The notes: generated by a model not told the origin, from the letters alone. Counted from the stretch's first letter, positions 2,935-62,346 are shown. The stretch is 64,000 bases of DNA from an uncultured Verrucomicrobiae bacterium (GCA_963789055.1 CAWBJE010000002.1:304563-368562), one strand, 5' to 3'. Numbers and translations: made by a program.

Positions 2935-3175
2935 TCATTATGCACCCGCTGGCCAATCTCGCCAAGTTGCTCCATAAACAGGATTTCCGCGACGGCCTGT
3001 GACGCCATTATTTTCATGGGGCTGACCCCGTCATGATATTGGATTCGCTCAAACACCAGTCAGAAGGCATCTCATTGGCACATCGCATTTGACAGTCACC
3101 GAAGCCGCATTATGATGTTTGCGATACACGGAATCGCACCGAGGAAGCCATATAGTTCTGTGATCACACATAAAA

Positions 3176-3406: not shown

Positions 3407-3612
3407 CACCTGATCTGGTTTCTCCACGGCGGCGGATTTTTGGCGCAGGACCCAGAGGCCGCTTAAAAGGCCTTGGGCCTCACGCGGTGGGTGACGCATC
3501 TGATTTACGACTCCGATTTTCGCGAGCACGCGCGGAGCGGTGTTGGCGATTTATAGTTGAAACAGAGATTTTCGTGTGGTTCGTATGGTTCGTGGTTCCA
3601 ATCTGGCGGCGG

Positions 3613-4761
3613 CTACAGCAATTCCAGCGCGCGCTGCAACTCGCCGTCCGTGTTGTAAAAATGCGGCGAGAAACGGATGTAATTCTGCCCTTTGCGGTCC
3701 GCGCGCAACGATGCTACGACACCGGCATCCGTTAATTTTTTATGCAACGCCGTGAGGTCTTTCCCCGGCTGATGAAAGGAAACAATGCCGCTGGCGTTTT
3801 CAGGTTTTGTATCTGCGCTCAAAACCGTAAACCCTTTCGCCTGCAAGGCCGGCACGAGCCACGCGCGTTTGCGCAACAGTTCAGCGGCTATATTTTCGAC
3901 GCCAACTTCCAGAACCAGTTCCATGGCGGCAATCAATCCCACGAGGCCGAGCAGATTGTGCGTGCCGGCTTCGTATTTCGCGGCGTCGTTGCGGAAAACA
4001 ATTTGCTCCTGTGCCACAAAATTCGGGCAGCGCACGTTGTGCCAGCCATAAACAGGCGGGTTCAGTTTTTCCTGCAACTTGCGCCGGACATAAAACAGCC
4101 CCGCGCCGCAGGGGCCGAGCAACCATTTGTGCGCGTCGGCAGCCAGAAAATCCACATGCTCAACCGTTGTCGGGAACGCGGCAAGCGTTTGGATGGCATC
4201 GAGACAAAATAAAATGCCGCGTTCGCGGAGAAACCTGCCGATGACCTGATGGTCCAGCCGGAAGCCACTGATGAAATGACAGGATGCAAGGGCGACGAGA
4301 CGGGTGTTTTCATCCACCTGCCCCATCACGTCCTTTGGTCGGATGACACCGATACCGCGGGTGTTCAGCAGTCGGACTTCGATGCCACGTTTGGCCAGTG
4401 CCATCCACGGATAAACGTTGGACGGGTAATCATCGTGGTAAATCAGGATGTTGTCGCCCCGCCGAAAACTCAGCCCGGCGGCGACAAAACTCAGTCCGAG
4501 TGACGTAGGCCCGACGAGTGCGACTTCCTCCGGCTGGCAATTCAGCAATTGCGCCCCGAGCCGGCGCGCGCCGTCCAAGCGGTGCTTGACGAACGCCTCC
4601 TGATCGCCCAGCGTGCCGCGTTGGGCACATTCGCCAACGGCCTCGGCTACGCGGCGCGGCAACGCGCAGACTCCCGCGTGCGCGAGGAAAATTTTGTCAC
4701 GCGCGACGGGAAATTCATTCCGGCGAAGCTCCTCATTGGCGTGCAATTCAGCCAGTGTCAT
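3613..4761 (-). CDS. Class V aminotransferase / cysteine desulfurase-like PLP enzyme
   Basis: 382 aa with the PLP-lysine region FLAADAHKWLLGPCGAGLFYV. The overall layout fits an aminotransferase class V fold. Confidence 0.8.
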   Translation of the reverse strand: MTLAELHANEELRRNEFPVARDKIFLAHAGVCALPRRVAEAVGECAQRGTLGDQEAFVKHRLDGARRLGAQLLNCQPEEVALVGPTSLGLSFVAAGLSFRRGDNILIYHDDYPSNVYPWMALAKRGIEVRLLNTRGIGVIRPKDVMGQVDENTRLVALASCHFISGFRLDHQVIGRFLRERGILFCLDAIQTLAAFPTTVEHVDFLAADAHKWLLGPCGAGLFYVRRKLQEKLNPPVYGWHNVRCPNFVAQEQIVFRNDAAKYEAGTHNLLGLVGLIAAMELVLEVGVENIAAELLRKRAWLVPALQAKGFTVLSADTKPENASGIVSFHQPGKDLTALHKKLTDAGVVASLRADRKGQNYIRFSPHFYNTDGELQRALELL

Positions 4762-4803
4762 GCAATAAAGTTAATTTGCGGGAGGCCGGCGCGCAAAGCG
4801 GAA

Positions 4804-5826
4804 TTAAAACCCCTTCATGATGTCGGATACCTGGCCGAAGTAGCCGACATAAAAATGGACGATTTCATACGCGATGACCAACGCAACCAGCAGATAAACC
4901 AGGCGGGGCGTCCATTGGGCGAAAGCGTGGAGTTTGCGCGTACCGTCGTCGCTGTAAAGCCGGTGCAGGTTGCGGAGTGATTCATCAAGTTTGCCGCTGA
5001 CTTCGCCGCTGGCATACAAATTGGCAAAAGTGTCCGGGAACAGTCGGCAGGCGCGCACGGCTTCGGACGGCATCTGACCGGCGGTCACTTTGGGCCTCCA
5101 GGCGACGACGGCGCGGCGCAAAGCGGGCGAACCGCTGGCGGTGGCGGCCAGGTCCCAGGCTTCAAAAATGTTGACTCCGGCGCTGATGAGCGCTTCGAGC
5201 GCCACGGCCAGCCGGGACAATGCCAGATAATGCCGGGCACGGCCCAGGATGGGAACCGGGCGCAGAAGGGATTCGATCACCGCGCGCCAGTGTTCACCGT
5301 GTTTGCTTTGCGTGGCGTAAATCAACGCGATGACCGCCCCATAAAACGGGGCGAGAATGAGCGCGGCCCGGCCGAACAGAAGAAGCAGGCTGGCGTTGAA
5401 TTGTGAGTGCGCGTATGGAAGCACAATTAAAAAAATGAAGGCGGCGAAGTGGATCAACCCGACAGGATACATGAGATCGGAAATTACCTGTTGAATGAGG
5501 CGGGCACGCTCGTTGTAGTAATCGGCCAACAGGCGGAAGCAGGTTTCCAGCCGGCCGCTTTTTTCGCCCGCTTCAATCAGCGCCAGGTCAAACGCAGGCA
5601 GCCAGTCGAGGCGCTGCAATGATTCGGCCAGCGTTGCACCCCCGATGAGTTCCTTGAGCAGGCGCCGCAATGGTTTGTGGTAAGTGGCGGACGGTGGATG
5701 GGATTCGATTTGTTCCAGGGCGCGAACGATAGGAATCCCCGCTGTGATTAACTGGCCGAGTTGATGATACAATTCGGCGCGCCGGGAGAATTGACGGGGT
5801 GAAATGATGAGCGACATAACGCCCAC
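4804..5826 (-). CDS. Type II secretion system F (GspF/PilC) family inner-membrane protein
   Basis: Two T2SSF-like repeats (GIPIVRALEQIES...LIEAGEKSGRLETCFRLLADYY and LISAGVNIFEAW...LYASGEVSGKLDESLRNL) separated by TM helices. No GspE-type ATPase lies nearby. Confidence 0.75.
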   Translation of the reverse strand: MGVMSLIISPRQFSRRAELYHQLGQLITAGIPIVRALEQIESHPPSATYHKPLRRLLKELIGGATLAESLQRLDWLPAFDLALIEAGEKSGRLETCFRLLADYYNERARLIQQVISDLMYPVGLIHFAAFIFLIVLPYAHSQFNASLLLLFGRAALILAPFYGAVIALIYATQSKHGEHWRAVIESLLRPVPILGRARHYLALSRLAVALEALISAGVNIFEAWDLAATASGSPALRRAVVAWRPKVTAGQMPSEAVRACRLFPDTFANLYASGEVSGKLDESLRNLHRLYSDDGTRKLHAFAQWTPRLVYLLVALVIAYEIVHFYVGYFGQVSDIMKGF

Positions 5827-5832
5827 CCCGTT

Positions 5833-6165
5833 TCAGGCTGCCACTCGGTCGAGGCTGGCCTTGAGATCGCGCCGGTTCTTGGCGCCAACCATTTGCTCGG
5901 CGATTTCGCCCTTGCTGAAAAGCAGCAGGGTGGGAATGGCGCGAATGCCGTACTCGGCGGCGAGCGACTGGTGCTCATCAACGTTTACTTTGCCGATTTT
6001 CACCTTGCCATCGTATTCATCAGCCAGTTCATCGAGCAGCGGCGCGATCATCTTGCACGGGCCGCACCACTCAGCCCAGAAATCAACGAGTACGGGCACC
6101 GGTGATTGCACAACCTGCTGCGCAAAATTTTCCGGTGTCAATGTGATGATTAATGGAGATGCCAT
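5833..6165 (-). CDS. trxA: Thioredoxin
   Basis: 110 aa with the active site [13 protein letters not shown]. Confidence 0.95.
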
Positions 6166-6216
6166 GTTTCAAATGAAACGGTTTAGAGCGCTATAAGTAA
6201 CACGGTTTAGCCGGGT

Positions 6217-6663
6217 TCAACCGATGGCATTCTTGAGCATCAGGAACATCCAAACCACCGTGCCGGCGGCGAACAATCCTGTCACCAGTGCGGCGATGAT
6301 CAATATGTTGTCGAGGGCGCTGATGGTAGGAGCGGCGGGAGCCGCTCTTTGAATCGCCGGAGCCGGACGGGTTTGGGCCACGGGTGCGGCAGCGGCGGCA
6401 ACAGTGGTTCGTGGCGCAGCAGCTGGAGCAGCTGCAGACAACGTCGGCGCTCTTGTTGGACTGGGCGGCGGTGTCGCACTGGGTGCGCCGGTCGGGCCGC
6501 CGGGCGGCAGCGTCGGCAGTTTAATCGTCGGCGCTGTGGAAGGTTTGGGTGGTAAATTGATCCGGACGGTCTCTTTTTTGGGCTGTACTTTGCCGGTTTC
6601 TTTTTTTACCGGAGGCACAGCACCAGCAGGTGCGCCGGGTATGTTCGAAGGAATGTCAGCCAT
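6217..6663 (-). CDS. Pro/Ala-rich protein with a C-terminal membrane anchor
   Basis: 148 aa. It has a low-complexity P/A/T-rich body and ends in the hydrophobic helix ILIIAALVTGLFAAGTVVWMFLML. Confidence 0.5.
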   Translation of the reverse strand: MADIPSNIPGAPAGAVPPVKKETGKVQPKKETVRINLPPKPSTAPTIKLPTLPPGGPTGAPSATPPPSPTRAPTLSAAAPAAAPRTTVAAAAAPVAQTRPAPAIQRAAPAAPTISALDNILIIAALVTGLFAAGTVVWMFLMLKNAIG

Positions 6664-6743
6664 AAATATTAGTGGTTCAAGATAAACGGCGGCCCGCGGC
6701 TGTCAAATGTATTTCTGGGTAAACCTGTTGACGCCAGCCGCTA

Positions 6744-8126
6744 TCAGACTTTTTCCTCGATTAATTCACGTCGGGCGCCACCGAGCAATTGTTCCACAAA
6801 ACCGGTCGAATAAACACCTCGCCGGAAATTCGGGTCCTGCATGATGGCCTGTTGGAATGACACCGTGGTTTTAATGCCGGTAATCATGTATTCGGCAAGC
6901 GCGCGGTTCATCCGGTCCATCGCTTCACGCCGGTCTTTGCCCGTGGCAATCAGTTTGCCCAGCATCGAGTCGTAGGTCGGGGGAATCGTATACCCCGCGT
7001 AGGCATGGGTATCCACGCGCACCCCGCGTCCGCCAGGTTGAAAATACATCTCAATCCGCCCCGGGCTGGGACGGAAATCATCGAACGGGTCTTCGGCATT
7101 AATGCGACATTCGATGGCATGGCCCTTGATTTGAATGTCGCTTTGCGAATGTTGCAACGGTTCGCCCATGGCCAGCAGGATTTGATAGCGTACGAGATCA
7201 ATCCCCGTGACTTCCTCGGTGACCGGATGCTCGACTTGAATCCGCTTGTTGACTTCGAGGAAATAAAAATTGCCGTGGTTGTCCACAATGAATTCAACAG
7301 TGCCGGCGTTGGTATAGTGCGCGGCTTCGGCGATTTTCACGGCCGCCTTGCCGATTCGGTCGCGCAATTTGCGGAATTTGAATTCGAGCAACGGCGACGG
7401 TGCCTCCTCAATAAGTTTCTGGTTGCGGCGTTGGACGGAGCAATCGCGTTCGCCCAGATGAATAATGCGGCCTTTGTGGTCCCCGAGAATTTGAATTTCA
7501 ATATGGTGCGGATTCTCGATGTATTTTTCGATGTAAACCCCGGAGTTGCCGAACGCTTTTTCCGCTTCATTTCGCGCCGTGTGAAAACCTTTCACCAGCG
7601 AAATATCATTGTGTGCCACGCGCATTCCGCGTCCGCCACCGCCGGCAATGGCTTTAATCATCACCGGATAACCTATGTGTTTGGCAATGGCCAAGGCATC
7701 CGGCTCTTTTTCAACGACGCCATCCGACCCTGGCGGCAAGGGCACCCCGGCCTTTTTTGCCAGCGCACGGCTGACCGCTTTGTCGGCCAGTGCCTGCATT
7801 GTGCGCGGATTGGGGCCGATAAAACGAACGTTGCAACTTTCGCAAACCTCGGCGAAATGCGCGTTCTCCGAAAGAAAACCATAGCCGGGATGAATCGCGT
7901 CCACATCCGCGACCTCCGCCGCACTGATAATGCGGTCAATGCGCAGATAACTTTCCGACGCCGCCGCTTTGCCGATGCAAATGGCCTCGTCGGCCAGTTG
8001 CACGTGCATGGAATTGGCATCCGCCTCCGAATAAACAGCTACCGTACGAATATTCAACTCTTTACAAGCGCGGATGATCCGAACGGCTATCTCGCCGCGA
8101 TTGGCCACCAGAATTTTTTCAAACAT
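6744..8126 (-). CDS. accC: Acetyl-CoA carboxylase, biotin carboxylase subunit
   Basis: N-terminus MFEKILVANRGEIAVRIIRACKELNI, ATP-grasp motif GGGGRGMRV, 460 aa. Confidence 0.97.
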   Translation of the reverse strand: MFEKILVANRGEIAVRIIRACKELNIRTVAVYSEADANSMHVQLADEAICIGKAAASESYLRIDRIISAAEVADVDAIHPGYGFLSENAHFAEVCESCNVRFIGPNPRTMQALADKAVSRALAKKAGVPLPPGSDGVVEKEPDALAIAKHIGYPVMIKAIAGGGGRGMRVAHNDISLVKGFHTARNEAEKAFGNSGVYIEKYIENPHHIEIQILGDHKGRIIHLGERDCSVQRRNQKLIEEAPSPLLEFKFRKLRDRIGKAAVKIAEAAHYTNAGTVEFIVDNHGNFYFLEVNKRIQVEHPVTEEVTGIDLVRYQILLAMGEPLQHSQSDIQIKGHAIECRINAEDPFDDFRPSPGRIEMYFQPGGRGVRVDTHAYAGYTIPPTYDSMLGKLIATGKDRREAMDRMNRALAEYMITGIKTTVSFQQAIMQDPNFRRGVYSTGFVEQLLGGARRELIEEKV

Positions 8127-8177
8127 GGGCTTTCAGTGAAAGCAAACAGCATTAATTCTATGTTTCCATCGTGAAAA

Positions 8178-8645
8178 TCAGGCCGGCCGCACTTTAAACA
8201 ACGGCTGGCCGAATTCCACCGGCTTGGCGTTCTCCACCAAAACCTGCGTGATGACACCTTTAACTTCAGCTTTGATTTCATTCATCACTTTCATCGCTTC
8301 GATGATGCATACCACGGTCTCAGGGGATATTTCCGTGCCAATTTCGACATAACTCGCCGCCTCAGGAGATGGCGCACGGTAAAATGTGCCAATCATTGGT
8401 GATTTGATCTCAACTTCGCCAGTGGACGGAGGGGTCGGTGCAGCGGCAGGTGGCGGTGCAACGGTGACCGGCGGCAGAACGGGCAAAATACCAGAAGGCA
8501 CGGGCTCGTCATACTGGATTACAGGAGTGCCGCCATTCGTACCGCGCTTCAGCCTGATTTTTGAATCCTGACGTTCCAATTCAAACTCCGTTATGGAGTT
8601 TTTCTTCATCAAGTCAATTATTGCTTTAATATCTTTTATATCCAC
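8178..8645 (-). CDS. accB: Acetyl-CoA carboxylase, biotin carboxyl carrier protein
   Basis: Biotinyl-lysine motif EAMKVMNEI and a P/A linker. It lies immediately upstream of accC. Confidence 0.93.
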   Translation of the reverse strand: MDIKDIKAIIDLMKKNSITEFELERQDSKIRLKRGTNGGTPVIQYDEPVPSGILPVLPPVTVAPPPAAAPTPPSTGEVEIKSPMIGTFYRAPSPEAASYVEIGTEISPETVVCIIEAMKVMNEIKAEVKGVITQVLVENAKPVEFGQPLFKVRPA

Positions 8646-8851
8646 GGCACGTTCTCGTTAAAGTTAACTAAGTTACCTGTCTTTTACAGACAATTACCAA
8701 AAAAGCAGTGCCGAAGTTCGACCCTGCTTGTATCTTTATTAAGTTGGGCTGAATCTTAATCAACCGAATGCCGGTCGTCAAGCCGCAAAACTAAAAAAAT
8801 CCGTTTGAACAAAAAACGATAAAATCACCTTAATAAATCGGGTTTTTGTGT

Positions 8852-9289
8852 TTATTTGTTTACGTTAACGTAAACGGATGCTTCCAAAGCCAAAACGTAG
8901 GATTTTGGGCCAAAGCCGGTGATTTGCCCGCAACAAACTGGAGCAATCAGCGATTTGTGCCTGAATTTTTCTCTCGCATGGACGTTTGAGAGGTGTATCT
9001 CAATGGTCGGTACTCCTACCGCCGCAATCGCATCCCGTAGCGCAATGCTGGTATGGGTGTAAGCAGCGGCATTGATGACAATCACGTCGAACTTCCCCTT
9101 TGCCTGCTGAATCCAGTCAACCAGCTCACCTTCCAGATTGGATTGCCGAAAATCAATTCCCACCTTCAATTTTGCAGCTCGTTTACGTACTTCGGCCTCA
9201 ATATCGGCCAAAGTCACACGACCATAAACTTCCGGCTCGCGCTGGCCGAGCAAATTCAGATTCGGTCCATTTAGAAAAAGGACTTTCAT
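8852..9289 (-). CDS. aroQ: Type II 3-dehydroquinate dehydratase
   Basis: Contains [18 protein letters not shown] and [16 protein letters not shown]; 145 aa. Confidence 0.93.
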
Positions 9290-10704
9290 GTGTGGCTGTC
9301 AGAATAACCGGTCACAGTCTGGTTGTCGATTTGATTTCCGGCTTTGGAGGTCAGGAAACCCAGCAAAGTAAAAGCGGTCCAAGCGAGGGCCGGAACATAG
9401 AGGCTGAACTCCCCAATACCTTGGATAAACCAACCAAGCAGCCCGATAAAAAAGGCGAAGGTGACTGAATCCCCGGCTTTCCAAATTCGCCGCCCGATAG
9501 TAACCAGCGACAGGATAATCCATGATCCGTAAAAAATTCCGCCGGGGATGCCCGAATCTGTAAATTGCTCCCAATAGTCATTATGCGCCAGACGGGCCAT
9601 TTCGGCAGCAGGTGATTTGAGTAGTGCATAGGGTCGCTGGAACGTACCCGGGCCGGTTCCCAGTAGCGGATGATTGCCGGTGATTATTGCTGCTGCGCGC
9701 CAATAATCAAATCGCGCGCTGGCGCTGGTGGCGCCGGAGGCAAAATAATTGTGAAAACGTGCGGCAAAAACGCCCAAGCCAAGAATTACCATAGCCGCCA
9801 CCGCGACAATTTTAAATTTGGACGGCCAATTCAAACGGAGCAAATACAAGGCGCCAATGATCATTGCAATCAGCCAGCCGAGTTTGGAGCCGGTCCAACA
9901 GAACGCTATGCCGCCCAGAACAATAGTCAGAACGATTACCGGTATGCGAACAGGCGGTCGCAACGGCCTTGTGTTGTTGAAAGCCAAAACGAGCGACACC
10001 GGCAATAACAGCAGAATCAGGCCCGCCAGGGCGTTGGGATATATCAAAGTGCCCATGACCCGCCCGGTGGCCAGTTTGGCGAGGACTATCGGATTGGCTG
10101 TGTCCGCGCCGTTAGTGGTGATGACAATCTGGTTTTGTTTCAACTCTGCCAGCACTTCCGGCGAAACGTTGGTCCAGCCGGTACGCTGGCCTTCCAATAG
10201 CATTTGCCGGCTTTGTGGAAATTCAAACAGTCGCTGGTCGATGCTTCGAACGACGCAAAAGGCAAAGGCCATCAGCACGCCGACGAGCAGCCAGCGCCAG
10301 GCACATTGGTGACCAAAAATAAGTGCACCGATGAAATAACACGCCAGGCATCCGGCAAATTGACAAAGCGCCATTGTGGTAAGGTTGCCATCTACGGTTT
10401 GCGTAGCGGAAAGCACCTGCCAGCCGAACCACAGCAACGGCAGCAACCAGAGCCAACGCGATCCCGGCCAATGCCGCTTGCTCGTGAAGGCAAAGGCTGC
10501 GCCGACCAGTGCCAGTGGCAGCAGAATCCAGTTGCTCCAATGAGGCGGCCAGGCGTCCACCCAAAATTCGGCGAGTGAAACCGGCGGCGCGATTTTTTGG
10601 TCGAGAATAACCGGGTTGCCGAATTTCAAGATCGCCAGCCCAAGAAACAAGCCGAATATGAGCGCATAATAGCCGATCCCGGTTGCTTTATTTTCAGGCT
10701 TCAT
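9286..10704 (-). CDS. O-antigen ligase/polymerase (Wzy_C-like) family membrane protein
   Basis: 472 aa with more than 10 TM segments and a loop [20 protein letters not shown] typical of the family. Its stop overlaps the aroQ start by 4 nt. Confidence 0.7.
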
Positions 10705-10727
10705 TGCGAGGATTCATTCGCAACCGA

Positions 10728-11790
10728 TCAAAAACGCAATTTGAGCAGGCTTACTTCCAATGCCAGTGCTTCCTGCACGTTGGTGTGCAACAGCCGCTGG
10801 GTTTGTTCCAAGGTTTGTAAATTTTCCAATGCCTCCTGTGGGGTAATGCGCCGGGCAACTGTTTCCGCACCGGCGATCTCAGGGAATTTCAGCAGTTTGC
10901 CACCGGCGGAGACAGTGCGCCCGTCCTCCGCAGCAGTGCTGCGGCGGAGGGTGGACAGCCACACGTCGCGCAGCCACCATTGCACAATCAAAAGCGTCTC
11001 TGCCCGCTGGCGGCGATATTCCGCTTCAATGGCTGCGGCCAGTTCGTCCTCCCATTTTTCGCGCAAATCCTTTTCGATTTCGTCGTATTGTTGCAGCGGT
11101 GAGCACGCCGTAAGCTTTTCTTCCACGCGTGCCCGAATTTCGCCAAGCCTTTGCAGCAACGCGTCAAGCAGCCGGTAACGCCCCAGCAGACTTTTTTGTT
11201 CATTGGCCGCCAGCGCGTCAAAATGCGCAAGCCATTCCTTTTGCGCCGGGTCCAGCGGGTGACCCTCTTCGCTGAAGAAATTCAGGCGCAGACAGCGCGA
11301 CAAGATGGTTTCTAAAATCCGCTGCGGTTCGGTCGAAAGCAAAATCAGAACCGACTCGGCCGGGCGGCTCTTCCAGTGTTTTCAGGAAAGCATTGGCGGC
11401 TTGAGCGTTGAGCCGGTCTGCTCCCGCGATGATGGCCACCTTGTATTCGGCCTCGGTGGGCTTGAGTTGGATTTCGCGCATCAACTCGCGCATTTGCTCG
11501 ACGGTGACGATGCGCGATTTGGATTCGGGTCGCGCCCAATGCACGTCGGCATGGGTATCGCGGTCAATCTTTTGGCAATTCAAACAGGTGTCGCAGCAAT
11601 CGGTTGCCACGTCGTCGGTTTTGACGGCGTTCCGGCAATTCAGCGTTTTGGCCAGCGTGCGGGCTAGCAATTCCAGCTCTTCGAGCTGATCGCCGGCGAA
11701 CAGGTAGGCATGGCCGAGCCGCCCGCGGGCGAGCGAACGCTGGAGCAATTCGACGCCTTGCGTCTGTCTGGCAAAATGTTTAAAGGCCAT
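10728..11790 (-). pseudogene. holB: DNA polymerase III delta-prime subunit, split into two frames by one frameshift near 11355-11367
   Basis: The N-terminal ORF has GHAYLFAGD...ANAFLKTLEEPPG. The family-typical continuation ESVLILLSTEPQRILETILSRC is in another frame starting within CCGCCCGGCCGAG. Confidence 0.85.
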
Positions 11791-33109: not shown

Positions 33110-35494
33110 CTAACGTATCTGGCGCAGGGCAGCAATGACTTGTCCCAGTGCTATCCCGCCGTCGTTCGGCGGCACGCGCTGATGCCAGTACGGTCGAAAA
33201 CCCTCCGCCTGCAACCGCCGCACGGTTCGTTCGGTGAGATAACGGTTCTGAAAACAGCCGCCGGAAAGCACCACTCGCTCCTGCCCGGCACGTTTGGCGA
33301 CGGCGACAATGCCTTCGGCCAGCGCGTTATGGAATTTGGCGGAGATGATACCGATGGAAACACCATTTTTGACGTTGGACAGGATCGACTCGATCATCGG
33401 GGACCAATCCAGGACAATTGCGGATTGCGGATTGCGGATTGTGGATTTGTTGACCGGAGAAGACACCGTTTCAATTGGCAATTGGCAATCGACAATCGGC
33501 AATGAATAAGCTTCATCGGTTTCGATACCATCGAGGGCAAACTCCAGTTCCATTGCGGCCTGACCCTCGAACCGGATTTTCTGACGAAGATTGACGAGTG
33601 ACGCCACGGCATCGAACAACCGACCCGCGCTCGTTGTCACTGGCGAGTTTAACTTTTTCTCCAGCATGGTTTTCAGTGCGGTCAATTCTTGTGGCGAAAA
33701 CGTCTGACGTAATTCGTGTTGCATATGCAACAAAAGGTTGTCTTGGCTGCCGGACATCTCATGGAGCAATCCGAGCGCGGAGCGGCGCGGTTCCTTGACC
33801 GCCTGGTCGCCACCCGGCAGCCGGAACGGACGCAAATGGGCAATGCGTTCGACATTTTCGGCCGTGACGAGGAAAAATTCGCCGCCCCAGACCGTGCCGT
33901 CCAAACCATAGCCGGTGCCGTCCCACGACACGCCCAAGACCGGCGGCACAATTTCATTCTCGGCCATGCACGACAGAACGTGCGCGATGTGGTGTTGGAC
34001 GCCAACGTGGCACAGACCTCCGGTCTGTGTTTTGCTCACAGGCCGGGAGGCCTGTGCCACAAATTCTTTCGCATACTTCGTCGAGAGATAATCCGGATGC
34101 AAATCGGCGGCGATGATTTGCGGTTTGGCTTCGTAAAGTTTCTGGAAATCGTCGATCACGCGGCAGAACGCGTCATAAGCCGGCTCGGTTTCCAAATCGC
34201 CAATGTGTTGGCTGATGAAAACCTGATTGCCGACGGACAAAGCAACGCAGTTTTTCAGATGCGCGCCAACGGCCAGAATTGGTTGAGGGTTGAGAGTTGA
34301 GAGTTGAGGGTTGAGCGTGATAGGTAATGGTGCGTAGCCTCTCGCTCGTCTCAACACTAATTCACGGTCGAGCATCACGCGCACAATCGAATCATCCACG
34401 TGCCGCACAATCGGGCGGTTATGGACCAGAAACACATCGGCAATGCCGCCCAATCGCTCCAGGGCTTCGTGTTCATCGGTGCAAATCGGTTCATCGCTTA
34501 AATTGCCGCTGGTGGCGACGACCGGAAAACCGAGTTCGGCCAGCAGCAAATGATGCAACGGTGTGTAGGGCAGCATTACGCCGAGATGGGGATTGTTTGG
34601 GGCAACGGAAGTTGAGGGTTGAGAGTTGAGAATTGAGCGTCGCCGGAGCAGCACGATGGGTGATTCGGGTGAGCGGAGCAGGCGCTCTTCCAAAGGCGAG
34701 ACTTCACAGACGGCTTTTATGCTTTCCAACGTCGGGAACATGAGCGCGAAGGGTTTTTCCTCGCGCTGTTTGCGCTCGCGCAAAAGTTGAACCGCCTTTT
34801 CGTTGCGCGCGTCCACCATCAGGTGAAATCCACCGAGTCCCTTCACAGCAACAATTTGACCCCGGCGAATTACCCGAGCCGCGGCGTGCAGAGCCTGGTG
34901 CCCGCCAAAGACCGCTTCGCCAGCCGGATTCCACAGTTCAAGGTGTGGCCCGCAAATCGGACAGGCATTTGGTTGCGCGTGGAAACGGCGGTCGCGCGGA
35001 TCGTTGTATTCAGTCTGGCATAGCGGACACATCGTGAACATTTTCATCGAGGTGTTCGCGCGGTCATAGGGCAGGGATTCGATGATGCTGAAACGGGGGC
35101 CGCAATTCGTGCAATTGGTGAACGGATAATGGTAACGGCGATTTTGGGGATCGAAGATTTCGCGCAGACAATCCGGACAGGTGGCAATGTCCGGCAACAC
35201 CAGCGCGGTTTTGTCGCCGCCGGTTTCGCTGGCACGGATCTCAAAGTTTTCATAGCCAACGGGGTCGAGCCATGAGGCTTCGAGGCTTTGGATGAAACTG
35301 CGCACGGGCTTTTCTGCTTCGAGACGCAGGAGAAATCGTTCGAGCCTGGCTCGCGGGCCTTCTACCTCGATGAAGACGCCCTGCGGCGAATTGTTGACCC
35401 AGCCGGTCAGACCGAGCTCGGTAGCCAGGTGATGGACAAATGGACGGAAACCGACGCCCTGCACCGCGCCCCGAACAGTAAGCTTGAGGCGCAT
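33110..35494 (-). CDS. hypF: Carbamoyltransferase HypF
   Basis: The start was set at ATG 35494 (MRLKLTVRGAVQGVGFRPFVHHLA, acylphosphatase domain). Two zinc-finger pairs are present (CPDCLREIFDPQNRRYHYPFTNCTNCGPRFSI and CPLCQTEYNDPRDRRFHAQPNACPICGP), followed by YrdC-like and Kae1-like regions. Confidence 0.93.
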   Translation of the reverse strand: MRLKLTVRGAVQGVGFRPFVHHLATELGLTGWVNNSPQGVFIEVEGPRARLERFLLRLEAEKPVRSFIQSLEASWLDPVGYENFEIRASETGGDKTALVLPDIATCPDCLREIFDPQNRRYHYPFTNCTNCGPRFSIIESLPYDRANTSMKMFTMCPLCQTEYNDPRDRRFHAQPNACPICGPHLELWNPAGEAVFGGHQALHAAARVIRRGQIVAVKGLGGFHLMVDARNEKAVQLLRERKQREEKPFALMFPTLESIKAVCEVSPLEERLLRSPESPIVLLRRRSILNSQPSTSVAPNNPHLGVMLPYTPLHHLLLAELGFPVVATSGNLSDEPICTDEHEALERLGGIADVFLVHNRPIVRHVDDSIVRVMLDRELVLRRARGYAPLPITLNPQLSTLNPQPILAVGAHLKNCVALSVGNQVFISQHIGDLETEPAYDAFCRVIDDFQKLYEAKPQIIAADLHPDYLSTKYAKEFVAQASRPVSKTQTGGLCHVGVQHHIAHVLSCMAENEIVPPVLGVSWDGTGYGLDGTVWGGEFFLVTAENVERIAHLRPFRLPGGDQAVKEPRRSALGLLHEMSGSQDNLLLHMQHELRQTFSPQELTALKTMLEKKLNSPVTTSAGRLFDAVASLVNLRQKIRFEGQAAMELEFALDGIETDEAYSLPIVDCQLPIETVSSPVNKSTIRNPQSAIVLDWSPMIESILSNVKNGVSIGIISAKFHNALAEGIVAVAKRAGQERVVLSGGCFQNRYLTERTVRRLQAEGFRPYWHQRVPPNDGGIALGQVIAALRQIR
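33420..33506. repeat. Two heptamer arrays inside hypF: (GCGGATT)x3+GTGGATT, then CAATTGG CAATTGG CAATCGA CAATCGG CAATGAA
   Basis: The arrays are at 33420-33447 and 33472-33506. On the coding strand they translate as IVDCQLPIETVSSPVNKSTIRNPQSAIVLDW. Confidence 0.8.
34281..34316. repeat. Heptamer array GGTTGAG GGTTGAG AGTTGAG AGTTGAG GGTTGAG inside hypF
   Basis: Read directly from the sequence. On the coding strand it translates as LNPQLSTLNPQP. Confidence 0.8.
34609..34637. repeat. Heptamer array AGTTGAG GGTTGAG AGTTGAG AATTGAG inside hypF
   Basis: Read directly from the sequence. On the coding strand it translates as ILNSQPSTS. Confidence 0.8.
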
Positions 35495-35589
35495 GCGTTG
35501 GCTGGCAGGTCCGGCTTTCTTCACGCGGAGATTTTGTCCGAAGCGGCTCCGAATTAAAAGCGGAAGGTAAATCCTGTCCCTGTTCGAGC

Positions 35590-35627
35590 ACAATTCGCCC
35601 CTCAAATCCGCCAACGCGTCCCAAAAT
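35590..35627 (+). promoter_or_regulatory. Copy C of the conserved intergenic motif (one extra A in the last block)
   Basis: acaattcgcccctcaaatccgccaacgcgtcccaaaat ends 52 nt before ATG 35680. Confidence 0.35.
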
Positions 35628-38362: not shown

Positions 38363-38454
38363 ATGCGGTCACAAATTGTGACCGCATCCGTTTTTGACAT
38401 CGCAAATTGCGATATCAAGTTCTGACCTTGTTCAAGGTCACAATTTGTGACCTT
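38363..38454. promoter_or_regulatory. Three stacked palindromes (candidate operators) directly upstream of the ORF6N gene
   Basis: ATGCGGTCACAAATTGTGACCGCAT (38363-38387, perfect), TTTGACATCGCAAATTGCGATATCAAG (38393-38419) and AAGGTCACAATTTGTGACCTT (38434-38454, perfect). The first begins 16 nt upstream of the ATG at 38347. Confidence 0.5.
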
Positions 38455-42665: not shown

Positions 42666-43571
42666 TTAACCGCCAACCTTGCTCTTTTGCGCCGCGAGGC
42701 CGAGCGGCTCGATGTGCACCATTACGTCGCTGACGGCGGGGATGTTGTCGCGGATTTTATCCTTCACGTCGTGGGCGATTTTATGCGAATGCAGAACGGT
42801 CATTTGCGGATCCACTTCCACGTGCATGTCCACGAAATATTGATAACCCACCTTGCGGACGATGCATTTTTCCACCCGGTCCACGCCGGGCGTGGAGGCC
42901 GCTATCTGCCGGATCCGGTCAATCACTTCCGGGCCGGGTGCGGTGTCCATGAGTTCGTTGAGCGCCGGCCGGAGCAGGTGCCAGCCGTTCCAGGCGATGA
43001 CCCCTGCCGCCGCAATCGCCGCCACGTCATCCGCCGCCTCAAACCCCTTGCCGCCAATGAGCGCCACGCTGATGCCGATGCCGGCGGCCACGGAGGTGAT
43101 GGCGTCGCTACGATGGTGCCAGGCATCGGTTGTGACCGCCGAGCTGTCCACCGCTTTGCCTTCGCGCGAGACAAAACGGAATAACATTTCTTTTACCACC
43201 ACCACTACCAGCAGCACGATGAGCGTAAACGGCGCCGGCGCCGGATGCGGTTCCATGATTTCACCAAGTGCCTTGAGGGCAATCCATAGCGCCGCCCCCA
43301 GCAACATGGCGGCGACAATGGCGGAGGCAATCGGTTCGGCTTTGCCGTGGCCGTAGGGATGGTCCTCGTCCGGCGGCGCCGCCGCCACGATGAGTCCGCG
43401 CCACACGATGAGCGAACTGAAAATGTCGGCGAAGGATTCAACGGCATCAGCGACGAGCGCGTGCGAATGGCCGGCAATGCCCGCGGCGAGTTTCGTGCCC
43501 GACAACACGACATTGACGGCCATGCCCGTAAAGGTGGCGCGCAAGCCGCGTTGGAGGCGGTTCATTGGCAC
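42666..43571 (-). CDS. Cation diffusion facilitator (CDF) family transporter
   Basis: GHSHALVADAVESFADIFSSLIV, six TM helices and a C-terminal cytoplasmic domain containing HVEPL. Confidence 0.85.
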   Translation of the reverse strand: MPMNRLQRGLRATFTGMAVNVVLSGTKLAAGIAGHSHALVADAVESFADIFSSLIVWRGLIVAAAPPDEDHPYGHGKAEPIASAIVAAMLLGAALWIALKALGEIMEPHPAPAPFTLIVLLVVVVVKEMLFRFVSREGKAVDSSAVTTDAWHHRSDAITSVAAGIGISVALIGGKGFEAADDVAAIAAAGVIAWNGWHLLRPALNELMDTAPGPEVIDRIRQIAASTPGVDRVEKCIVRKVGYQYFVDMHVEVDPQMTVLHSHKIAHDVKDKIRDNIPAVSDVMVHIEPLGLAAQKSKVGG

Positions 43572-43580
43572 GCAGAGAAT

Positions 43581-43699
43581 GTCGAATTTCGAATGAGAAG
43601 TGTCGAATGCAAAATTTGGATAAATGGATTACTGGATAATTGGATTGCTCAGTCAGCCGATTGCGACCCATTTATCCACCAATCCACTCATCCAACTTC
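43581..43699. repeat. Composite short-period repeat: heptamers (GTCGAAT-like x5), then octamer arms (GGATWNNT x4 and the complementary CCANNNAT x4)
   Basis: 43581-43615 reads GTCGAAT TTCGAAT GAGAAGT GTCGAAT GCAAAAT. 43618-43649 reads GGATAAAT GGATTACT GGATAATT GGATTGCT. 43668-43699 reads CCATTTAT CCACCAAT CCACTCAT CCAACTTC. Confidence 0.8.
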
Positions 43700-44912
43700 A
43701 GATTAAGTGGCAGAACATGGCGTCGCGGAGCTTGGGCTCAAACCACGTGCTCTTGGGTGGCATGATGCCGCCGGCGGTGGCAACGGCCATCAGGTCCTCA
43801 ATGGCCGTCGGAAACATCGAGAACGCGCAGGCGTACTCGCCGCTGTTCACCAGCTTTTCCAGCTCCGCCGTACCGCGAATGCCGCCGACAAAATTGAGCC
43901 GCTTGCTCGTGCGCGGGTCGTCAATGCCAAACACCGACGCCAGGATGTGTTCCTGCAAGAGCGACGCGTCAAGCGAATCAACCGAGTTGCGCGGGGCACT
44001 GAGTTTAATACGCAGGCCTATGGTATGCCATTTGCCCGCGACATAGAGGCTGATTTCGTGTTTGCCCGCCGGCTGGGCTTTGCCGCTTGGTTCAACGGGA
44101 AATACGGTGCCGATGATTTCCAACAACTGCTCCGGCGTCCAGTTGTTCAAATCCTTCACCACGCGGTTGTAGGGCAGGATTTGCATCTGGTTGTGGGGAA
44201 ATATCACGGCGAGAAATTGTCCGCTCTGGCCCGCCCCCTGGCGCGTCCGGAAAATCCGCACCGCCGCGGCGCTGCGATGATGGCCGTCAGCAATGTAAAG
44301 ATACGGGATGGTGGAAAATTGCGTCTCGATGAATTTGATTTCCTCCGGATCGGCAATCACCCAGGCCGAGTGCCGCACCTGGTCCCTGGTGGTAAAGTCG
44401 ACCTCCGGTTTTTTTGAAATTCTCTTTGCAACGAATTTATCGATGTCAGCGTTGGCGCGGTACGTCAAAAAAACCGGGCCGGTTTGCGCGTTCAAGGCAT
44501 CGATGTGCCGGGCACGGTCGTCCACCTTGTCGGGTCGGGTCAGCTCGTGCTTTTTGATGGTCTCGCGCAGGTACTCCTCGCAACTCGCGGTGGCCACGAG
44601 GCCCACCTGCGTATGTTTGCCCATGATCTGCCGGTAGAGATAAAAACACAGTTGCGCATCCTGCTTCAACACGCCGTCTTTAATGAGCTTTTGAAAATTG
44701 TCGCGGCCTTTGGCATAAACTTCCGGCGCGGCAGGGTCCGTGCCCGGCGGCAAATCTATCTCCGGTTTGCTGACGTGCAGAAAACTGAGCGGATTACCGG
44801 CGGCGATTTCCCGCGCTTCGTCCGACGACATCACGTCGTAGGGCAATTCACAAATGCGCGCGGCCTGTTTGGGGTCCGGTCGCAACGCAGCGAAAGGTTT
44901 GACCGCGGCCAT
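43698..44912 (-). CDS. DUF1015 domain-containing protein
   Basis: The start was set at ATG 44912. MAAVKPFAALRPDPKQAARICELPYDVMSSDEAREIAAGNPLSFLHV is the typical DUF1015 N-terminus; 404 aa. Confidence 0.8.
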   Translation of the reverse strand: MAAVKPFAALRPDPKQAARICELPYDVMSSDEAREIAAGNPLSFLHVSKPEIDLPPGTDPAAPEVYAKGRDNFQKLIKDGVLKQDAQLCFYLYRQIMGKHTQVGLVATASCEEYLRETIKKHELTRPDKVDDRARHIDALNAQTGPVFLTYRANADIDKFVAKRISKKPEVDFTTRDQVRHSAWVIADPEEIKFIETQFSTIPYLYIADGHHRSAAAVRIFRTRQGAGQSGQFLAVIFPHNQMQILPYNRVVKDLNNWTPEQLLEIIGTVFPVEPSGKAQPAGKHEISLYVAGKWHTIGLRIKLSAPRNSVDSLDASLLQEHILASVFGIDDPRTSKRLNFVGGIRGTAELEKLVNSGEYACAFSMFPTAIEDLMAVATAGGIMPPKSTWFEPKLRDAMFCHLI

Positions 44913-46422: not shown

Positions 46423-46503
46423 ATTTTAGATTTACGATTTACGATTTACGAGGGGAATCTGAAACGAGTGGCGACTCGTAAATCTTAAATCGCCAATCGT
46501 AAA
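46423..46503. repeat. Hairpin-forming pair of heptamer arrays (ATTTACG)n / (CGTAAAT)n between smpB and rpoZ
   Basis: The left arm ATTTTAG ATTTACG ATTTACG ATTTACG is at 46423-46450. A 25-nt loop follows. The right arm TCGTAAA TCTTAAA TCGCCAA TCGTAAA is at 46476-46503. Confidence 0.8.
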
Positions 46504-46507
46504 TGAG

Positions 46508-54715: not shown

Positions 54716-56200
54716 TCAGATTATGATAGCGGCTTTCTCCCGGTGCCACAAGGTGTTTGCCTCGTAAGCCCGGCCAATTTTCAAAATGGTCTCCTCGCCG
54801 AACGGTTTGCCGAGCAATTGCAGACCGATGGGTAGCTTGGGATTTTTAGTGAACCCGCACGGAACACTGATGCCGCAGATGCCCGCCAGATTACATGCCA
54901 GCGTGAACACGTCACACAAATACATTTGCAGCGGGTCGTCGGATTTTTCACCAATTTTAAACGCGGCCGTCGGCGTGGTGGGTGTGACGATGGCGTCCAC
55001 TTTTTCGAATGCCTTCAGAAAATCGTCGCGGATAAGCGTGCGGACCTTTTGGGCGCGCAGATAATACGCGTCGTAGTAACCGCTGCTCAACACGTAAGTG
55101 CCCAGAATGATGCGCCGCTTGACCTCCGCGCCAAAACCCGCCCCGCGCGTACGGCAGTAAAGTTCAATTGGGTCCGCGCCGTCCACCCGCGCCCCGTAAC
55201 GGATGCCGTCGAAACGCGCGAGGTTCGCGGACGCCTCGGCGGGGGCGATAATGTAATACGTTGCCGCCGCGTAGTCGGTGTGCGGCAGGGAAATTTCCAC
55301 AATCTCCGCGCCCAGCTTCTCCAATTGTTTCACCGCGACGTCCACCGCGGCCTTCACTTCGGCATCCAACCCGCCAATCATGTATTCCTTCGGCAGACCA
55401 AGCTTCAAACCCTTGATGGATGGCCCTTCCGAGGAGCCGTTCAGCGCCGCGACGTAACCCGGCACCGGCTGCGGCACGCTGGTGGAATCGCGCGGATCGT
55501 GCCCGCTGATGACGCCGAGCATCATCGCCGCGTCGCGGACGTTTTTGGCGAACGGCCCAATTTGGTCGAGAGACGAGGCAAAGGCGACGAGACCATAGCG
55601 CGACACGCGGCCGTAGGTGGGTTTGAGGCCCACGCAACCGCACAACGCGGCCGGCTGCCGAATCGAACCGCCGGTGTCGGAGCCGAGCGCGGCAATGGCC
55701 TCGTCCGCCACGACTGCCGCCGCCGAACCGCCGGATGACCCGCCGGGAATGCGCGTGGTGTCCCATGGATTGTGCGTTACGCCGAACGCGGAATTTTCCG
55801 TCGAACTGCCCATGGCAAATTCATCCATGTTCAACCGGCCAAAGACAATCGCACCCGCCGCCTGCAATTTTTCAACAACCGTGGCGTCGTAGGGTGATAT
55901 AAATTTGCCGAGAATTTTCGAGCCGCAGTTGAGCGGCTGGTTTTTGACGGCGAGCACGTCCTTGACCGCGACCGGCACGCCCAGCAACGGTTTTTGGGCG
56001 TGGGTTGCACCGGCGGCAATGGCCTTGTCCGCTGCGTCCGCCTGCGCCAGCGCGTCCGCCGCGTCGTGGCTGATAAAGGCGTGGATTTTTCCGTCCACGC
56101 GCGCAATCTGGTCGAGGCACGATTGCATGGCCTCGCGGGCGGAGACTTCGCGTTTGGCGAGCCGGGCGGTCAGTTCGGAGATGGTCAGTTGGTTCAGCAT
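54716..56200 (-). CDS. gatA: Glutamyl-tRNA(Gln) amidotransferase subunit A
   Basis: The start was set at ATG 56200 ([14 protein letters not shown]). Amidase signature [11 protein letters not shown]; 494 aa. The longer ORF in the track reads through the spacer and gatC. Confidence 0.93.
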
Positions 56201-56208
56201 GGAACTCC

Positions 56209-56299
56209 GGATTATTGGATTGTTGGATAAATGGATAAATTTCAGCAACTGCTTTTGCCCCAATAATCCAAAAATCCAATTATCCATCAATCCATTCAT
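56209..56299. repeat. Octamer-array hairpin in the gatC|gatA spacer
   Basis: The left arm GGATTATT GGATTGTT GGATAAAT GGATAAAT is at 56209-56240. The right arm CCAATAAT CCAAAAAT CCAATTAT CCATCAAT CCATTCAT is at 56260-56299. Confidence 0.8.
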
Positions 56300-56301
56300 T
56301 T

Positions 56302-56589
56302 TCATTCCACGATTTTGGGCACCATGAACAGCCCGTTGGCCTGGGCGGGCGCGTTGCGCAGGGCGTCGGTGTGCGGGAGCGACGGACGAACTGCGTCCGG
56401 GCGCATCACGTTGACCATCGGCACGGCGTGGGCGGTGGGCTCGACGCCGGCCACGTCGAGTTTCTTCAATTTCTCGATGTAACCTAGGATGCCGTCGAGC
56501 TGGGCGCCGAGTTTCTTTTCCTCGTCGGGTGTGAGCTGCACCCGCGCCAGATGCGCGACGTATTTGATGTCTAATTGAGGTGCTGACAT
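56302..56589 (-). CDS. gatC: Glutamyl-tRNA(Gln) amidotransferase subunit C
   Basis: 95 aa: [31 protein letters not shown]. It lies upstream of gatA. Confidence 0.88.
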
Positions 56590-60527: not shown

Positions 60528-61100
60528 TCATTCCTGGTAATGCGCCAGGATGGCATCCCATTTATCCTGCGCTTTCAAAAGCATTTCTGCAACCTCGCGC
60601 ACCGCGCCGCGCCCGCCCGGCGCGCGCGTGACATAATGCGCCGCCGCCTTCACCTCGGGCCGCGCGTCACCCGCCGCCACGGCGAACCCCGCGCGTTTCA
60701 ACGGCCCCAAATCCACCACGTCATCGCCAACGAAGCAAACTTGGCCCCAATTTAGTTTCAGGCGGCGCAAGAGTTTTTCCACCGCGGCGGTCTTACCGAT
60801 CCGGTCGCCCTGCTGGACGAGAAAATCAATGTGCAATTCCGCCGCCCGCATCTCGGTGACCACCGACGGCCGTGCCGAGACCCAGCCCACTTTGAAACCG
60901 TTCCGGCGCAAAAAAACCATGCCCAGCCCGTCCCGGATGTTGAACCGCTTGATTTCCCTTGCCGCGCGGGAGCTTTGCGAAGGCGGGCGCCCACCGCCGA
61001 TGAACACCGAGCCGTCGGTCAACACGCCGTCCACGTCGCACAGGAATAACTTGATGCGTTTCAGGCGGGTGCGCAATTGCGGTGAAATTTTCGCAGCCAT
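60528..61100 (-). CDS. kdsC: KDO 8-phosphate phosphatase (HAD-IIIA)
   Basis: FLCDVDGVLTDG ... VCFVGDDVVDL. An unusual insert (GGRPPSQSSRAAREIK) lies in the cap region. Confidence 0.8.
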   Translation of the reverse strand: MAAKISPQLRTRLKRIKLFLCDVDGVLTDGSVFIGGGRPPSQSSRAAREIKRFNIRDGLGMVFLRRNGFKVGWVSARPSVVTEMRAAELHIDFLVQQGDRIGKTAAVEKLLRRLKLNWGQVCFVGDDVVDLGPLKRAGFAVAAGDARPEVKAAAHYVTRAPGGRGAVREVAEMLLKAQDKWDAILAHYQE

Positions 61101-61117
61101 GAGAAATCAAAAGGGAA

Positions 61118-61215
61118 AAACATCGAACACTGAACATCGAACGCTGAACATCGAACGATTTTGCGTGGCGGAAATCGTTCGGCGTTCGATGTTGGACGTT
61201 CGATGTTCGACGTTC
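61118..61215. repeat. 98-nt hairpin built from six GAACNNN heptamers and six NNNGTTC heptamers, in the kdsA|kdsC spacer
   Basis: The left arm AAACATC GAACACT GAACATC GAACGCT GAACATC GAACGAT is at 61118-61159. The right arm ATCGTTC GGCGTTC GATGTTG GACGTTC GATGTTC GACGTTC is at 61174-61215 and overlaps the kdsA stop codon. Confidence 0.85.
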
Positions 61216-62032
61216 ATCTATTTACCGCATTAAAGATTTTCAACAGAGCCCGCAGCAACGCCGGCATTTCCGCCAGCGGAATCATGTTCGGCCCGTCGCT
61301 TAACGCCCGTTCAGGGTGTGGATGGGTTTCGACGAACAATCCGTTCGCGCCCGCGGCCAGCGCCGCGCGGGCCAGCACCGGCGCAAATTCGCGCTGGCCG
61401 CTGGATTTGTCGCCGCCGCCGCCGGGCAGTTGCACCGAGTGGGTCGCGTCGAACACCACCGGGAACCCGGATGATTTCATGATGGGAATCGAGCGCATGT
61501 CGGCCACGAGATTGTTGTAGCCGAACGTTGTGCCGCGCTCGGTGAGCAGGATTCTTTTCGCCCCGGCGCGCCGGGCTTTTTCGGCTGCCTGCGCCATTTC
61601 GGTCGGCGACAGGAACTGGCCTTTTTTCAGATTGATGATGCGGCCCGTGGTGGCGGCAGCTTCAATCAAATCCGTCTGGCGGCAGAGAAACGCGGGAATT
61701 TGCAGAATATCCACGACTTCACCCGCGATGACGGCCTGCATCTCGGTATGCACATCGGTCAGCACCGGCACGCCGAATTCGGCGCGGACCTTGCCCAGCA
61801 CGCGCAAACCTTCCTCGAGACCCGGCCCGCGAAAGGATTTGGCCGACGTGCGGTTGGCCTTGTCGAAACTGGCTTTGAAGATGAGGAAGACGCCGAGCTG
61901 GGCGCAGGTTTTCTTGAGTGCGCCGGCGACCTGCAGGCACAACTTTTCGCTTTCAATCACGCACGGTCCGGCAATCAAAAACAGCCGGCGGGGTGAATTA
62001 AGATTTTTCCAGATGGCGGCGTCGTTGAACAC
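61214..62032 (-). CDS. kdsA: 3-deoxy-8-phosphooctulonate (KDO-8-P) synthase
   Basis: [11 protein letters not shown]...[12 protein letters not shown]...VLTDVH...[14 protein letters not shown]...[12 protein letters not shown]. Confidence 0.93.
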
Positions 62033-62173: not shown

Positions 62174-62346
62174 CGTAGCGGCGAGTCGGCAGACCGCCGC
62201 TGACCGAACACAAAATGGCGGCGCTCTGTGGCGTAGTGGCTTTCGGGAGAAAGCCGCAAATTGAAAAATGACGTAGCGGCGAGTCGGCAGAAAGCCGTCG
62301 TTTGGAAAAAGAGAAATTTGCGGCGCTCTGCCGAGACGCCGCTACG
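62174..62346. repeat. Two tandem GC-rich REP-like units
   Basis: CGTAGCGGCGAGTCGGCAGA occurs at 62174-62193 and again at 62272-62291. Each copy is followed by an inverted partner (GGCGGCGCTCTGTGGCGTAG near 62217, and GCGGCGCTCTGCCGAGACGCCGCTACG at 62320-62346). Confidence 0.7.

Follow-up and report, generated by a model that had tools for sequence, protein, structure and literature searches.

The two octamer-array hairpins in the window (the whole 64,000-nucleotide stretch of DNA analysed, from an uncultured Verrucomicrobiae bacterium) are copies of one unit family, TGGATWNN, usually TGGG-terminated before a G+C-rich loop. The results with control cores and with a scan of repeat periods place the two loci, as one unit family, in a generic class of repeat-armed hairpins, which is apparently unnamed, with no description found in the literature. 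With moderate confidence, we regard these hairpins as palindromic repeats of the STRR or REP kind, which evolve by slippage and by gain, loss and replacement of whole elements and are transcribed as intercistronic hairpins. The octamer hairpins are not canonical terminators.

Locus 1 (43611-43699, minus strand), defined by pattern search and folding, is a hairpin of the GGATWNNT octamer family. Arm 1 (43618-43649) consists of the units GGATAAAT GGATTACT GGATAATT GGATTGCT, the loop (43650-43667) is 18 nt long and arm 2 (43668-43699) consists of the units CCATTTAT CCACCAAT CCACTCAT CCAACTTC. The hairpin lies between a DUF1015-family gene upstream (43698-44912, minus strand) and a cation diffusion facilitator (CDF) gene downstream (42666-43571, minus strand; start at 43571), and it begins 3-6 nt past the DUF1015 stop codon; the CDF start region is conserved among relatives. 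Locus 2 (56199-56310, minus strand) belongs to the same GGATWNNT family and fills the whole spacer between gatC (56302-56589, minus strand; stop at 56302-56304) upstream and gatA (54716-56200, minus strand; start at 56200) downstream. Four units in arm 1 (56209-56240) are followed by a 19-nt loop and by five units in arm 2 (56260-56299), and the array hairpin proper spans 56208-56294 in the predicted fold. The gatC assignment comes from a Pfam GatC match on an ortholog with the same synteny, and an exact-protein look-up of the window GatC gave no record. The gatA product matches PF01425 and is 85-91% identical to proteins labelled Verrucomicrobiota or Verrucomicrobiia by their sources, which assigns the window to that phylum. 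Both octamer loci thus sit in short spacers within co-directional minus-strand gene pairs (DUF1015 to CDF and gatC to gatA), and because the flanking genes are co-directional on the minus strand, this strand is the mRNA sense strand at both loci. The initial annotation had reported the arrays at these two places, and their sequence, arms, loops and coordinates proved exactly right; the two loci are also not a duplicated segment, as it had held.

The arrays are not a product of chance. The pattern GGATN4GGATN4GGAT with at most one mismatch gives nine overlapping matches in the 64-kb window, at 43618-43693 and 56201-56293 only, and dinucleotide shuffles are expected to give 0.20; nine matches were reached by 0 of 100 shuffles. 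The two GGAT octamer arrays are therefore the only such arrays within the window. On the sense (minus) strand, locus 1 folds at -46.8 kcal/mol (z -4.7) and locus 2 at -38.5 kcal/mol (z -3.9), and on the plus strand the values are -38.0 and -31.8 kcal/mol, respectively. A fold as good as that of the real sequence was obtained from 0 of 200 shuffles in each of the four runs (two loci on two strands). At locus 1, the sense strand folds more stably than the antisense by about 9-13 kcal/mol and has seven G:U among its 38 pairs. The arms had been proposed to pair in several registers. This is borne out at locus 2, where three registers (-35.3, -38.5 and -36.2 kcal/mol) lie within 3.2 kcal/mol, but not at locus 1, where one register dominates (-44.1 versus -29.3 and -26.9 kcal/mol). 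Locus 2 also has an outer stem of 7 bp, in which 56304-56310, the end of gatC including its stop, pairs with 56199-56205 in the gatA start region; the paired strands are GUGGAAU, made up of the final gatC codons plus the first base of the stop, and GUUCCAU, which ends in the A and U of AUG. Since this stem pairs them, the gatC stop and the gatA start are predicted to be brought together. The same stop-start juxtaposition appears in the predicted folds of the gatC|gatA spacer of the closest relative (L124), of the rpoZ|smpB spacer and of the hairpins of a phage-like contig.

Next to locus 1, five heptamers of the GTCGAAT type had been reported at 43581-43615. Three of these are good (G/T)TCGAAT copies; the other two are degenerate, and the heptamers form a separate feature. 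They lie in a CDF-upstream motif (43572-43617, minus strand) that reads ATTTTGCATTCGACAC-N7-TTCGAAATTCGACATT-N6-GTG in the sense direction, contains ATTCGACA twice, 21 nt apart, and is separated from the CDF start codon by six bases. The motif is found at the same position in 11 of 74 DUF1015-downstream regions (the window and 10 relatives), and it is present in the hairpin-free genomes L141, L143 and L184. Because it is kept in relatives without the hairpin, it is not part of the hairpin element. The AUUUUG 3' of locus 1 belongs to this motif and occurs at empty sites too. In other relatives, this place is taken by a different conserved motif, made of TTTCGTG repeats with GTTAATAAT after them. 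The CDF-upstream motif is probably the CDF promoter or operator, and it could be a near-leaderless mRNA promoter or the operator of a metal regulator.

To analyze how the two spacers vary among relatives, we compared their orthologs, and structure is present at both spacers, as had been proposed for comparison. In the distinct gatC|gatA spacers sampled, which are about 90-125 nt long, an array hairpin is found in 4/4, each with a different unit. The unit is GGAT-8 in the window, ACATCGA-7 in L124 (the closest relative, with a GatA 91% identical and the HprK-HPr-gatC-gatA synteny in common), an ACGGAT-containing 10-mer in L209 and GCGCAAAG-8 in L210-212. No hairpin is found in other relatives, where gatC and gatA are split by two genes or gatC is absent. 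L127 has a gene for a 258-residue protein and a PAP2-family gene between gatC and gatA; the same two genes precede gatA in L128 and L213, where gatC is uncalled or the locus is cut, and L126 has gatA without gatC upstream. Given these differing arrangements in L126-L128 and L213, the gatCA pair is not a fixed operon in the clade. Some database GatA homologs (P0003, P0050 and others) carry N-terminal extensions upstream of the conserved N-terminus. Apparently, their start was called too far upstream, in a frame that runs through the spacer. For P0003 (L124), the sole GatA inspected in its DNA, the frame of the extension passes through the repeat hairpin. The array translations in these over-long GatA N-termini are uninformative.

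The DUF1015|CDF spacer was compared in 80 fetched metagenome loci, whose DUF1015 relatives are 68-86% identical; 580 relatives were confirmed. The DNA right after the DUF1015 stop is extremely variable among about 70 relatives. The spacer is empty in, for example, L141, L143, L152, L167 and L184. Elsewhere it holds GTAG...CTAC REP-like hairpins, GCTGCCGGC (GCTGCC-type) hairpins, GGGAGGG hairpins, or heptamer arrays of the unit ACGTGAA or GATTTAC, and L169, L171, L189, L201 and L204 carry a GGAT octamer hairpin. Six orthologous GGAT copies can be aligned; their arms contain 3-5 units and their GGAT:ATCC pairs are retained, and compensatory change among them is limited to two pairs. In a neighbour-joining tree of the DUF1015 protein, each element type turns up on scattered branches, and even sister genomes differ: L169 has GGAT and L159 a GGGAGGG hairpin, L171 has GGAT and L172 GATTTAC, and an empty L152 stands beside a GTAG-type L155. 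After the CDF stop, a filled site in L130, with an ACATCGA hairpin, contrasts with an empty one in the window. Turnover at the orthologous spacers is rapid, and it is site and architecture that recur, mostly without the GGAT unit.

Beyond the window, the species-representative genomes of a 596-Gb collection were scanned for GGATN4GGATN4GGAT, a gap of 15-45 nt and ATCCN4ATCCN4ATCC. At least 119 loci match this hairpin pattern, and by our estimate fewer than one match to a 24-base pattern is expected by chance in 596 Gb under equal base use. The matches listed come from Verrucomicrobiota, Planctomycetota, Bacteroidota, Gemmatimonadota, Acidobacteriota, Nitrospirales, Chloroflexota, KSB1, Lentisphaerae and one cyanobacterium, according to MAG labels. 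Several MAGs are multi-copy among these, and one has at least six strict GGAT matches. The build is 3-6 octamer units per arm, a loop of about 10-30 nt and mirrored arms among the matches listed, with the exception of three trivial GGATCC-type tandem repeats; in the same matches, the four free unit positions have a lineage-specific flavour. Verrucomicrobiota copies, both window copies included, are TGGATWNN and mostly TGGG-terminated before a G+C-rich loop, and one Planctomycetota subfamily conserves an apical CTGACA loop. Copies within one genome have only the unit core in common, and their unit order and loop differ. A poorly anchored unit-by-unit mirror test gave a similarity at the variable positions of 0.69 in the best register and 0.52 in other registers, and showed no more than that these positions resemble one another in every register. 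In the MAG STL-VER8 (JAXMHQ01), the GGAT hairpins L006, L040 and L117 have the outer sequence GACTCCGTCGAGCCCT in common, and two of them, L006 and L117, also have its inverted partner AGGGCTCGACGGAG on the far side. These outer inverted sequences suggest a composite or nested element.

The invariance of GGAT across phyla is built into this result, because the collection scan fixed GGAT. As a control, the same pattern with other cores of equal base composition was searched on viral contigs, where GGAT gave 4 loci, GGTA 3, GAGT 6 and GTGA 28, the last being the commonest of the four cores tested. The control-core matches have the same architecture as the GGAT matches. A GGAT-specific code was rejected, since viral contigs contain the control cores as often as GGAT or more often. 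A special meaning of the GGAT core is not demonstrated; it is one flavour of a widespread class.

An unbiased scan, which took any 4-mer that recurs three times at constant spacing ahead of three such copies of its reverse complement, found heptamer-unit hairpins in the window at 33417-33503, 46423-46504 and 61110-61223, so that the two GGAT copies are among five array hairpins in the 64 kb. The hairpin at 46423-46504 (minus strand; unit GATTTAC; z -3.5) fills the rpoZ-like|smpB spacer and is conserved in L144, whose DUF1015 is 72% identical. The one at 61110-61223 (minus strand; unit ACATCGA, five units per arm; -48.8 kcal/mol, z -5.0) fills a co-directional minus-strand spacer between genes at 60528-61100 and 61214-62032. 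The third (33410-33505, minus strand; unit GATTGCG) lies in frame within hypF (33110-35614). It consists of GATTGCG four times, a loop and CAATYGN four times, and is read as about 20 extra residues, at which place the solved Caldanaerobacter HypF (3VTH) has a 20-residue gap; its sense RNA is less stable in the fold than the antisense, by about 10 kcal/mol. Across 483 kb of Verrucomicrobiota DNA taken without regard to GGAT, an inverted partner array accompanies 36 of 65 period-7 arrays and 14 of 24 period-8 arrays, the latter mostly GGAT-type, and only 8-16% of the arrays with periods of 5, 6, 9, 10 or 11. The same units recur at unlinked sites: ACATCGA at 61.1 kb in the window, in the L124 gatC|gatA spacer and after CDF in L130, and GATTTAC at rpoZ|smpB and, in relatives, at DUF1015|CDF. 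One genome holds at least four unrelated unit families.

Further arrays, which the initial annotation had set beforehand as the test of a genome-wide element family, thus exist both in the window and in the genome collection. The repeat family is supported because the arrays recur, their folds beat every shuffle and relatives carry structure. However, GGAT is not what distinguishes it, and the family widens into a broader class of several units.

Other palindromic sequences were seen beside these arrays. A GTAG...CTAC REP-like hairpin (CGTAGCGGCG...CGCCGCTACG) at 62272-62346 (no strand assigned) belongs to a repeat family distinct from the array hairpins and is of the same type as the DUF1015-spacer occupants in several relatives. 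A perfect 17-nt palindrome is present in two intergenic copies, 52 nt apart, at 38367-38383 (GGTCACAAATTGTGACC) and 38436-38452 (GGTCACAATTTGTGACC), and this pair (38367-38452) looks like a paired operator. On a phage-like contig (L243, IMGVR_UViG_3300031525_000951), the region 719-10757 carries five near-identical octamer hairpins of GGTGACAA units, which also occur in L226; those of L243 fold at -60 to -80 kcal/mol, each 2-33 nt past a stop codon, with all genes on one strand.

The placement of the elements follows the available spacers. Among the matches listed, the 39 GGAT elements with both neighbours within 250 nt comprise 22 in co-directional, 10 in convergent and 7 in divergent gene pairs, close to the background of gene pairs at the same loci (60/20/20%), as judged with crude longest-ORF gene calls. 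The sense strand folds better than the antisense in six of seven GGAT copies, and in 16 versus 8 of the array hairpins of known orientation (n = 24; Wilcoxon p = 0.03, for copies that are non-independent). No strand bias was found over 50 strong hairpin spacers (25 versus 24), nor over the GGAT matches listed from the at least 119 loci, where gene calls were crude. A consensus terminator scan found nothing at either octamer locus; a U-tract is absent, and CCGGAGUUCCAUG comes directly after locus 2. A consensus sigma-70 promoter scan likewise gave no match at either locus. Rfam at the gathering threshold reported only a tRNA in the window, permissive Rfam scans gave only generic eukaryotic miRNA-precursor hairpins far below threshold, and the covariance models of TwoAYGGAY and of CsrB/RsmZ-type GGA sRNAs had no match at either locus. 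The spacer-proportional placement, the copy in hypF and the absence of a terminator, promoter or Rfam match together favour a repeat class that settles in tolerant DNA over a dedicated terminator.

Several observations fit this palindromic-repeat account poorly. The hairpins in 4/4 gatC|gatA spacers and the conserved rpoZ|smpB copy look more like selection than like a neutral repeat, the mild sense-strand advantage hints at selection at the RNA level, no target-site duplication or conserved termini were found, and differences in unit order and loop among copies of one family are a poor fit to copy-and-paste. The main alternative, possible if tentative, is a selected cis-acting RNA structure for which any repeat-armed hairpin suffices and the sequence families are interchangeable; it might serve in RNase III-type processing, as a 3'-end stabiliser, as an attenuator or as a stop-start coupling device. 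The four gatC|gatA hairpins made from four units speak for such a structure, as do the base pairing of the gatC stop with the gatA AUG region in the window and L124, the like pairing at rpoZ|smpB and the conservation of that copy in L144. The better sense folds (6/7 GGAT copies and 16/24 array hairpins) and the five phage-like contig hairpins, each 2-33 nt past a stop, point the same way, and the same role has been proposed for cyanobacterial STRR hairpins (PMC2670836). However, elements also lie between divergent genes and overall follow spacer availability, the sites at DUF1015|CDF and after CDF are empty in close relatives, and the sense fold of the hypF copy is about 10 kcal/mol worse than its antisense fold. 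The sense bias is absent over the 50 strong spacers, and neither a U-tract nor a terminator-scan match is seen. In a wider form of this idea, functional intercistronic RNAs would include an unrecognised class, present across phyla, of repeat-armed hairpins with 7-8-nt units, selected for their architecture and with swappable units; this seems to us rather unlikely.

It is unlikely that the hairpins are non-autonomous mobile elements (MITE- or REP-like) moved by a transposase encoded elsewhere, such as a RAYT/IS200-IS605 enzyme acting on single-stranded hairpins. Presence, absence and replacement at identical sites, even between sister genomes, would fit mobility, as would the recurrence of unit families at unlinked loci and between genomes, the outer GACTCCGTCGAGCCCT common to three GGAT copies of one MAG and inverted in two, and the co-occurrence of GTAG-type REPs, known in Verrucomicrobia (PMC3733652), in the window and its relatives. 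But the elements lack a GTAG or CGTC tag, unit order and loop vary between copies of one genome, and the comparison of filled with empty sites shows no convincing target-site duplication, with a possible TAA after CDF only. Still less probable is a periodic array for a DNA- or RNA-binding protein that reads GGAT/ATCC every 8 nt, with the symmetry reflecting a multimeric binder. The four core nucleotides never change, whereas the remaining four vary within copies and between the six orthologous ones, the period is sharply 7 or 8, and the apical CTGACA loop of the Planctomycetota subfamily is conserved, all of which such a protein might explain; yet the control cores are as common or commoner, one genome has at least four unrelated unit families, a period of 8 fits no DNA helical repeat, and the GGA motifs are base-paired in the fold, unlike loop-presented CsrA-type sites. 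We know of no candidate protein. Finally, chance low-complexity sequence or an assembly artefact is effectively refuted. Tandem repeats are prone to mis-assembly, but the observed count was reached by 0 of 100 shuffles, fewer than one chance match is expected in 596 Gb against at least 119 found, and orthologous copies occur in independent assemblies, some apparently long-read, to judge by contig names and lengths. Other candidates were set aside by reasoning only. A DnaA-box cluster was dropped because an 8-nt period leaves no room for tiled 9-mer boxes, although TTATCCAC is present; Chi-like arrays were dropped because the units vary and one genome has several families, and IHF sites, integron attC sites and extended -10 promoters because their consensus sequences do not match. 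Pairing with the 16S 3' end was also discarded.

Under the palindromic-repeat account that we prefer, the hairpins would form a class of small non-coding palindromic repeats with arms built as short tandem runs of 7- or 8-nt units. Copies appear, vanish and replace one another in non-coding spacers, mostly just past stop codons and occasionally in frame. Slipped-strand mispairing may generate the differences in unit number between orthologous copies, and pairing between the arms would keep the GGAT:ATCC blocks complementary. The window copies are probably transcribed into mRNA, as expected from their position on the sense strand within co-directional gene pairs. In the mRNA, each would adopt an imperfect hairpin with about 30-38 base pairs and with the upstream stop near the downstream start. 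Their probable role would be intercistronic 3'-end protection or processing that leaves translational coupling intact.

Among known systems, the STRR heptamers of cyanobacteria form hairpins between hupS and hupL and elsewhere, and a function in transcript stability, translational coupling or termination has been proposed without proof (PMC2670836). Like STRRs, the present elements are short tandem units, and the hairpin that they form lies between genes of one transcript or close to 3' ends; the window heptamer hairpins look the same in kind. The two octamer loci, although hairpin-forming as STRRs are, are strictly 8-nt and so fall outside the strict heptamer definition. The host also differs, being a member of Verrucomicrobiota, and the present class spans about ten phyla as well as viral contigs. 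A mirrored layout in two arms prevails among its arrays of period 7-8 (55-58%). The TAACTGA heptamer direct repeats of Beggiatoaceae, Cyanobacteria and Bacteroidetes lie just upstream of start codons, have a single unit sequence and include one inverted case only among 170 sets (PMC4679880). Like them, the present elements are intergenic heptamer tandem arrays, patchy across phyla, with a suspected post-transcriptional role (PMC4679880). GTAG-family REPs are known in Verrucomicrobia (PMC3733652), and in relatives they occupy the same spacers as array hairpins. REP/BIME elements resemble the array hairpins as small imperfect intergenic palindromes, probably with many copies, with several families per genome and with variability at orthologous sites. 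However, neither locus has a GTAG/CGTC tag at either end, the stems here are 30-50 nt of tandem units compared with the 20-40 nt unique palindrome of REPs, and the octamer copies have no fixed consensus beyond the unit core. Rickettsia palindromic elements (RPE) are able to occupy protein-coding genes in frame, and the hypF copy resembles them in this. Unlike RPE and MITE, the array hairpins have no terminal inverted repeats apart from the arms and no target-site duplication that could be found; at the DUF1015 and CDF stops, none is clear between filled and empty sites, with a possible TAA at most. Like intrinsic terminators and T7-type RNase III hairpins, they lie right past stops, within or at the end of transcription units, but the two octamer loci lack the short G+C-rich stem and U-tract of intrinsic terminators, and stems here are three to five times longer than those of terminators. 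In CsrA/RsmA-binding RNA, the GGA is presented in loops or single strands, whereas every GGAU here is predicted to pair with AUCC in the stem. A full-text literature search with twelve representative array sequences found none of them, and a keyword search returned related work on STRR, REP and TAACTGA only.

Even if selfish or neutral, the array hairpins are an abundant repeat class, undescribed as far as it appears, in about ten phyla and mostly in uncultured lineages. They can mislead gene callers, as with the over-long GatA starts in several relatives, and they mark fast-evolving sites that could serve for strain typing. Were the rather unlikely reading as a functional RNA class true, the selected architecture would be a long, register-tolerant stem that fills the spacer and sets stop against start, with the unit families as exchangeable cassettes. 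The gatC|gatA hairpin would then be required for the correct expression of both subunits, for example via coupled re-initiation or RNase III processing. Should selection act on the architecture, the hairpins would be a clear case of structure conserved while sequence is exchanged, and would provide a handle on the processing and coupling of operon mRNA in Verrucomicrobiota, Planctomycetota and their phages.
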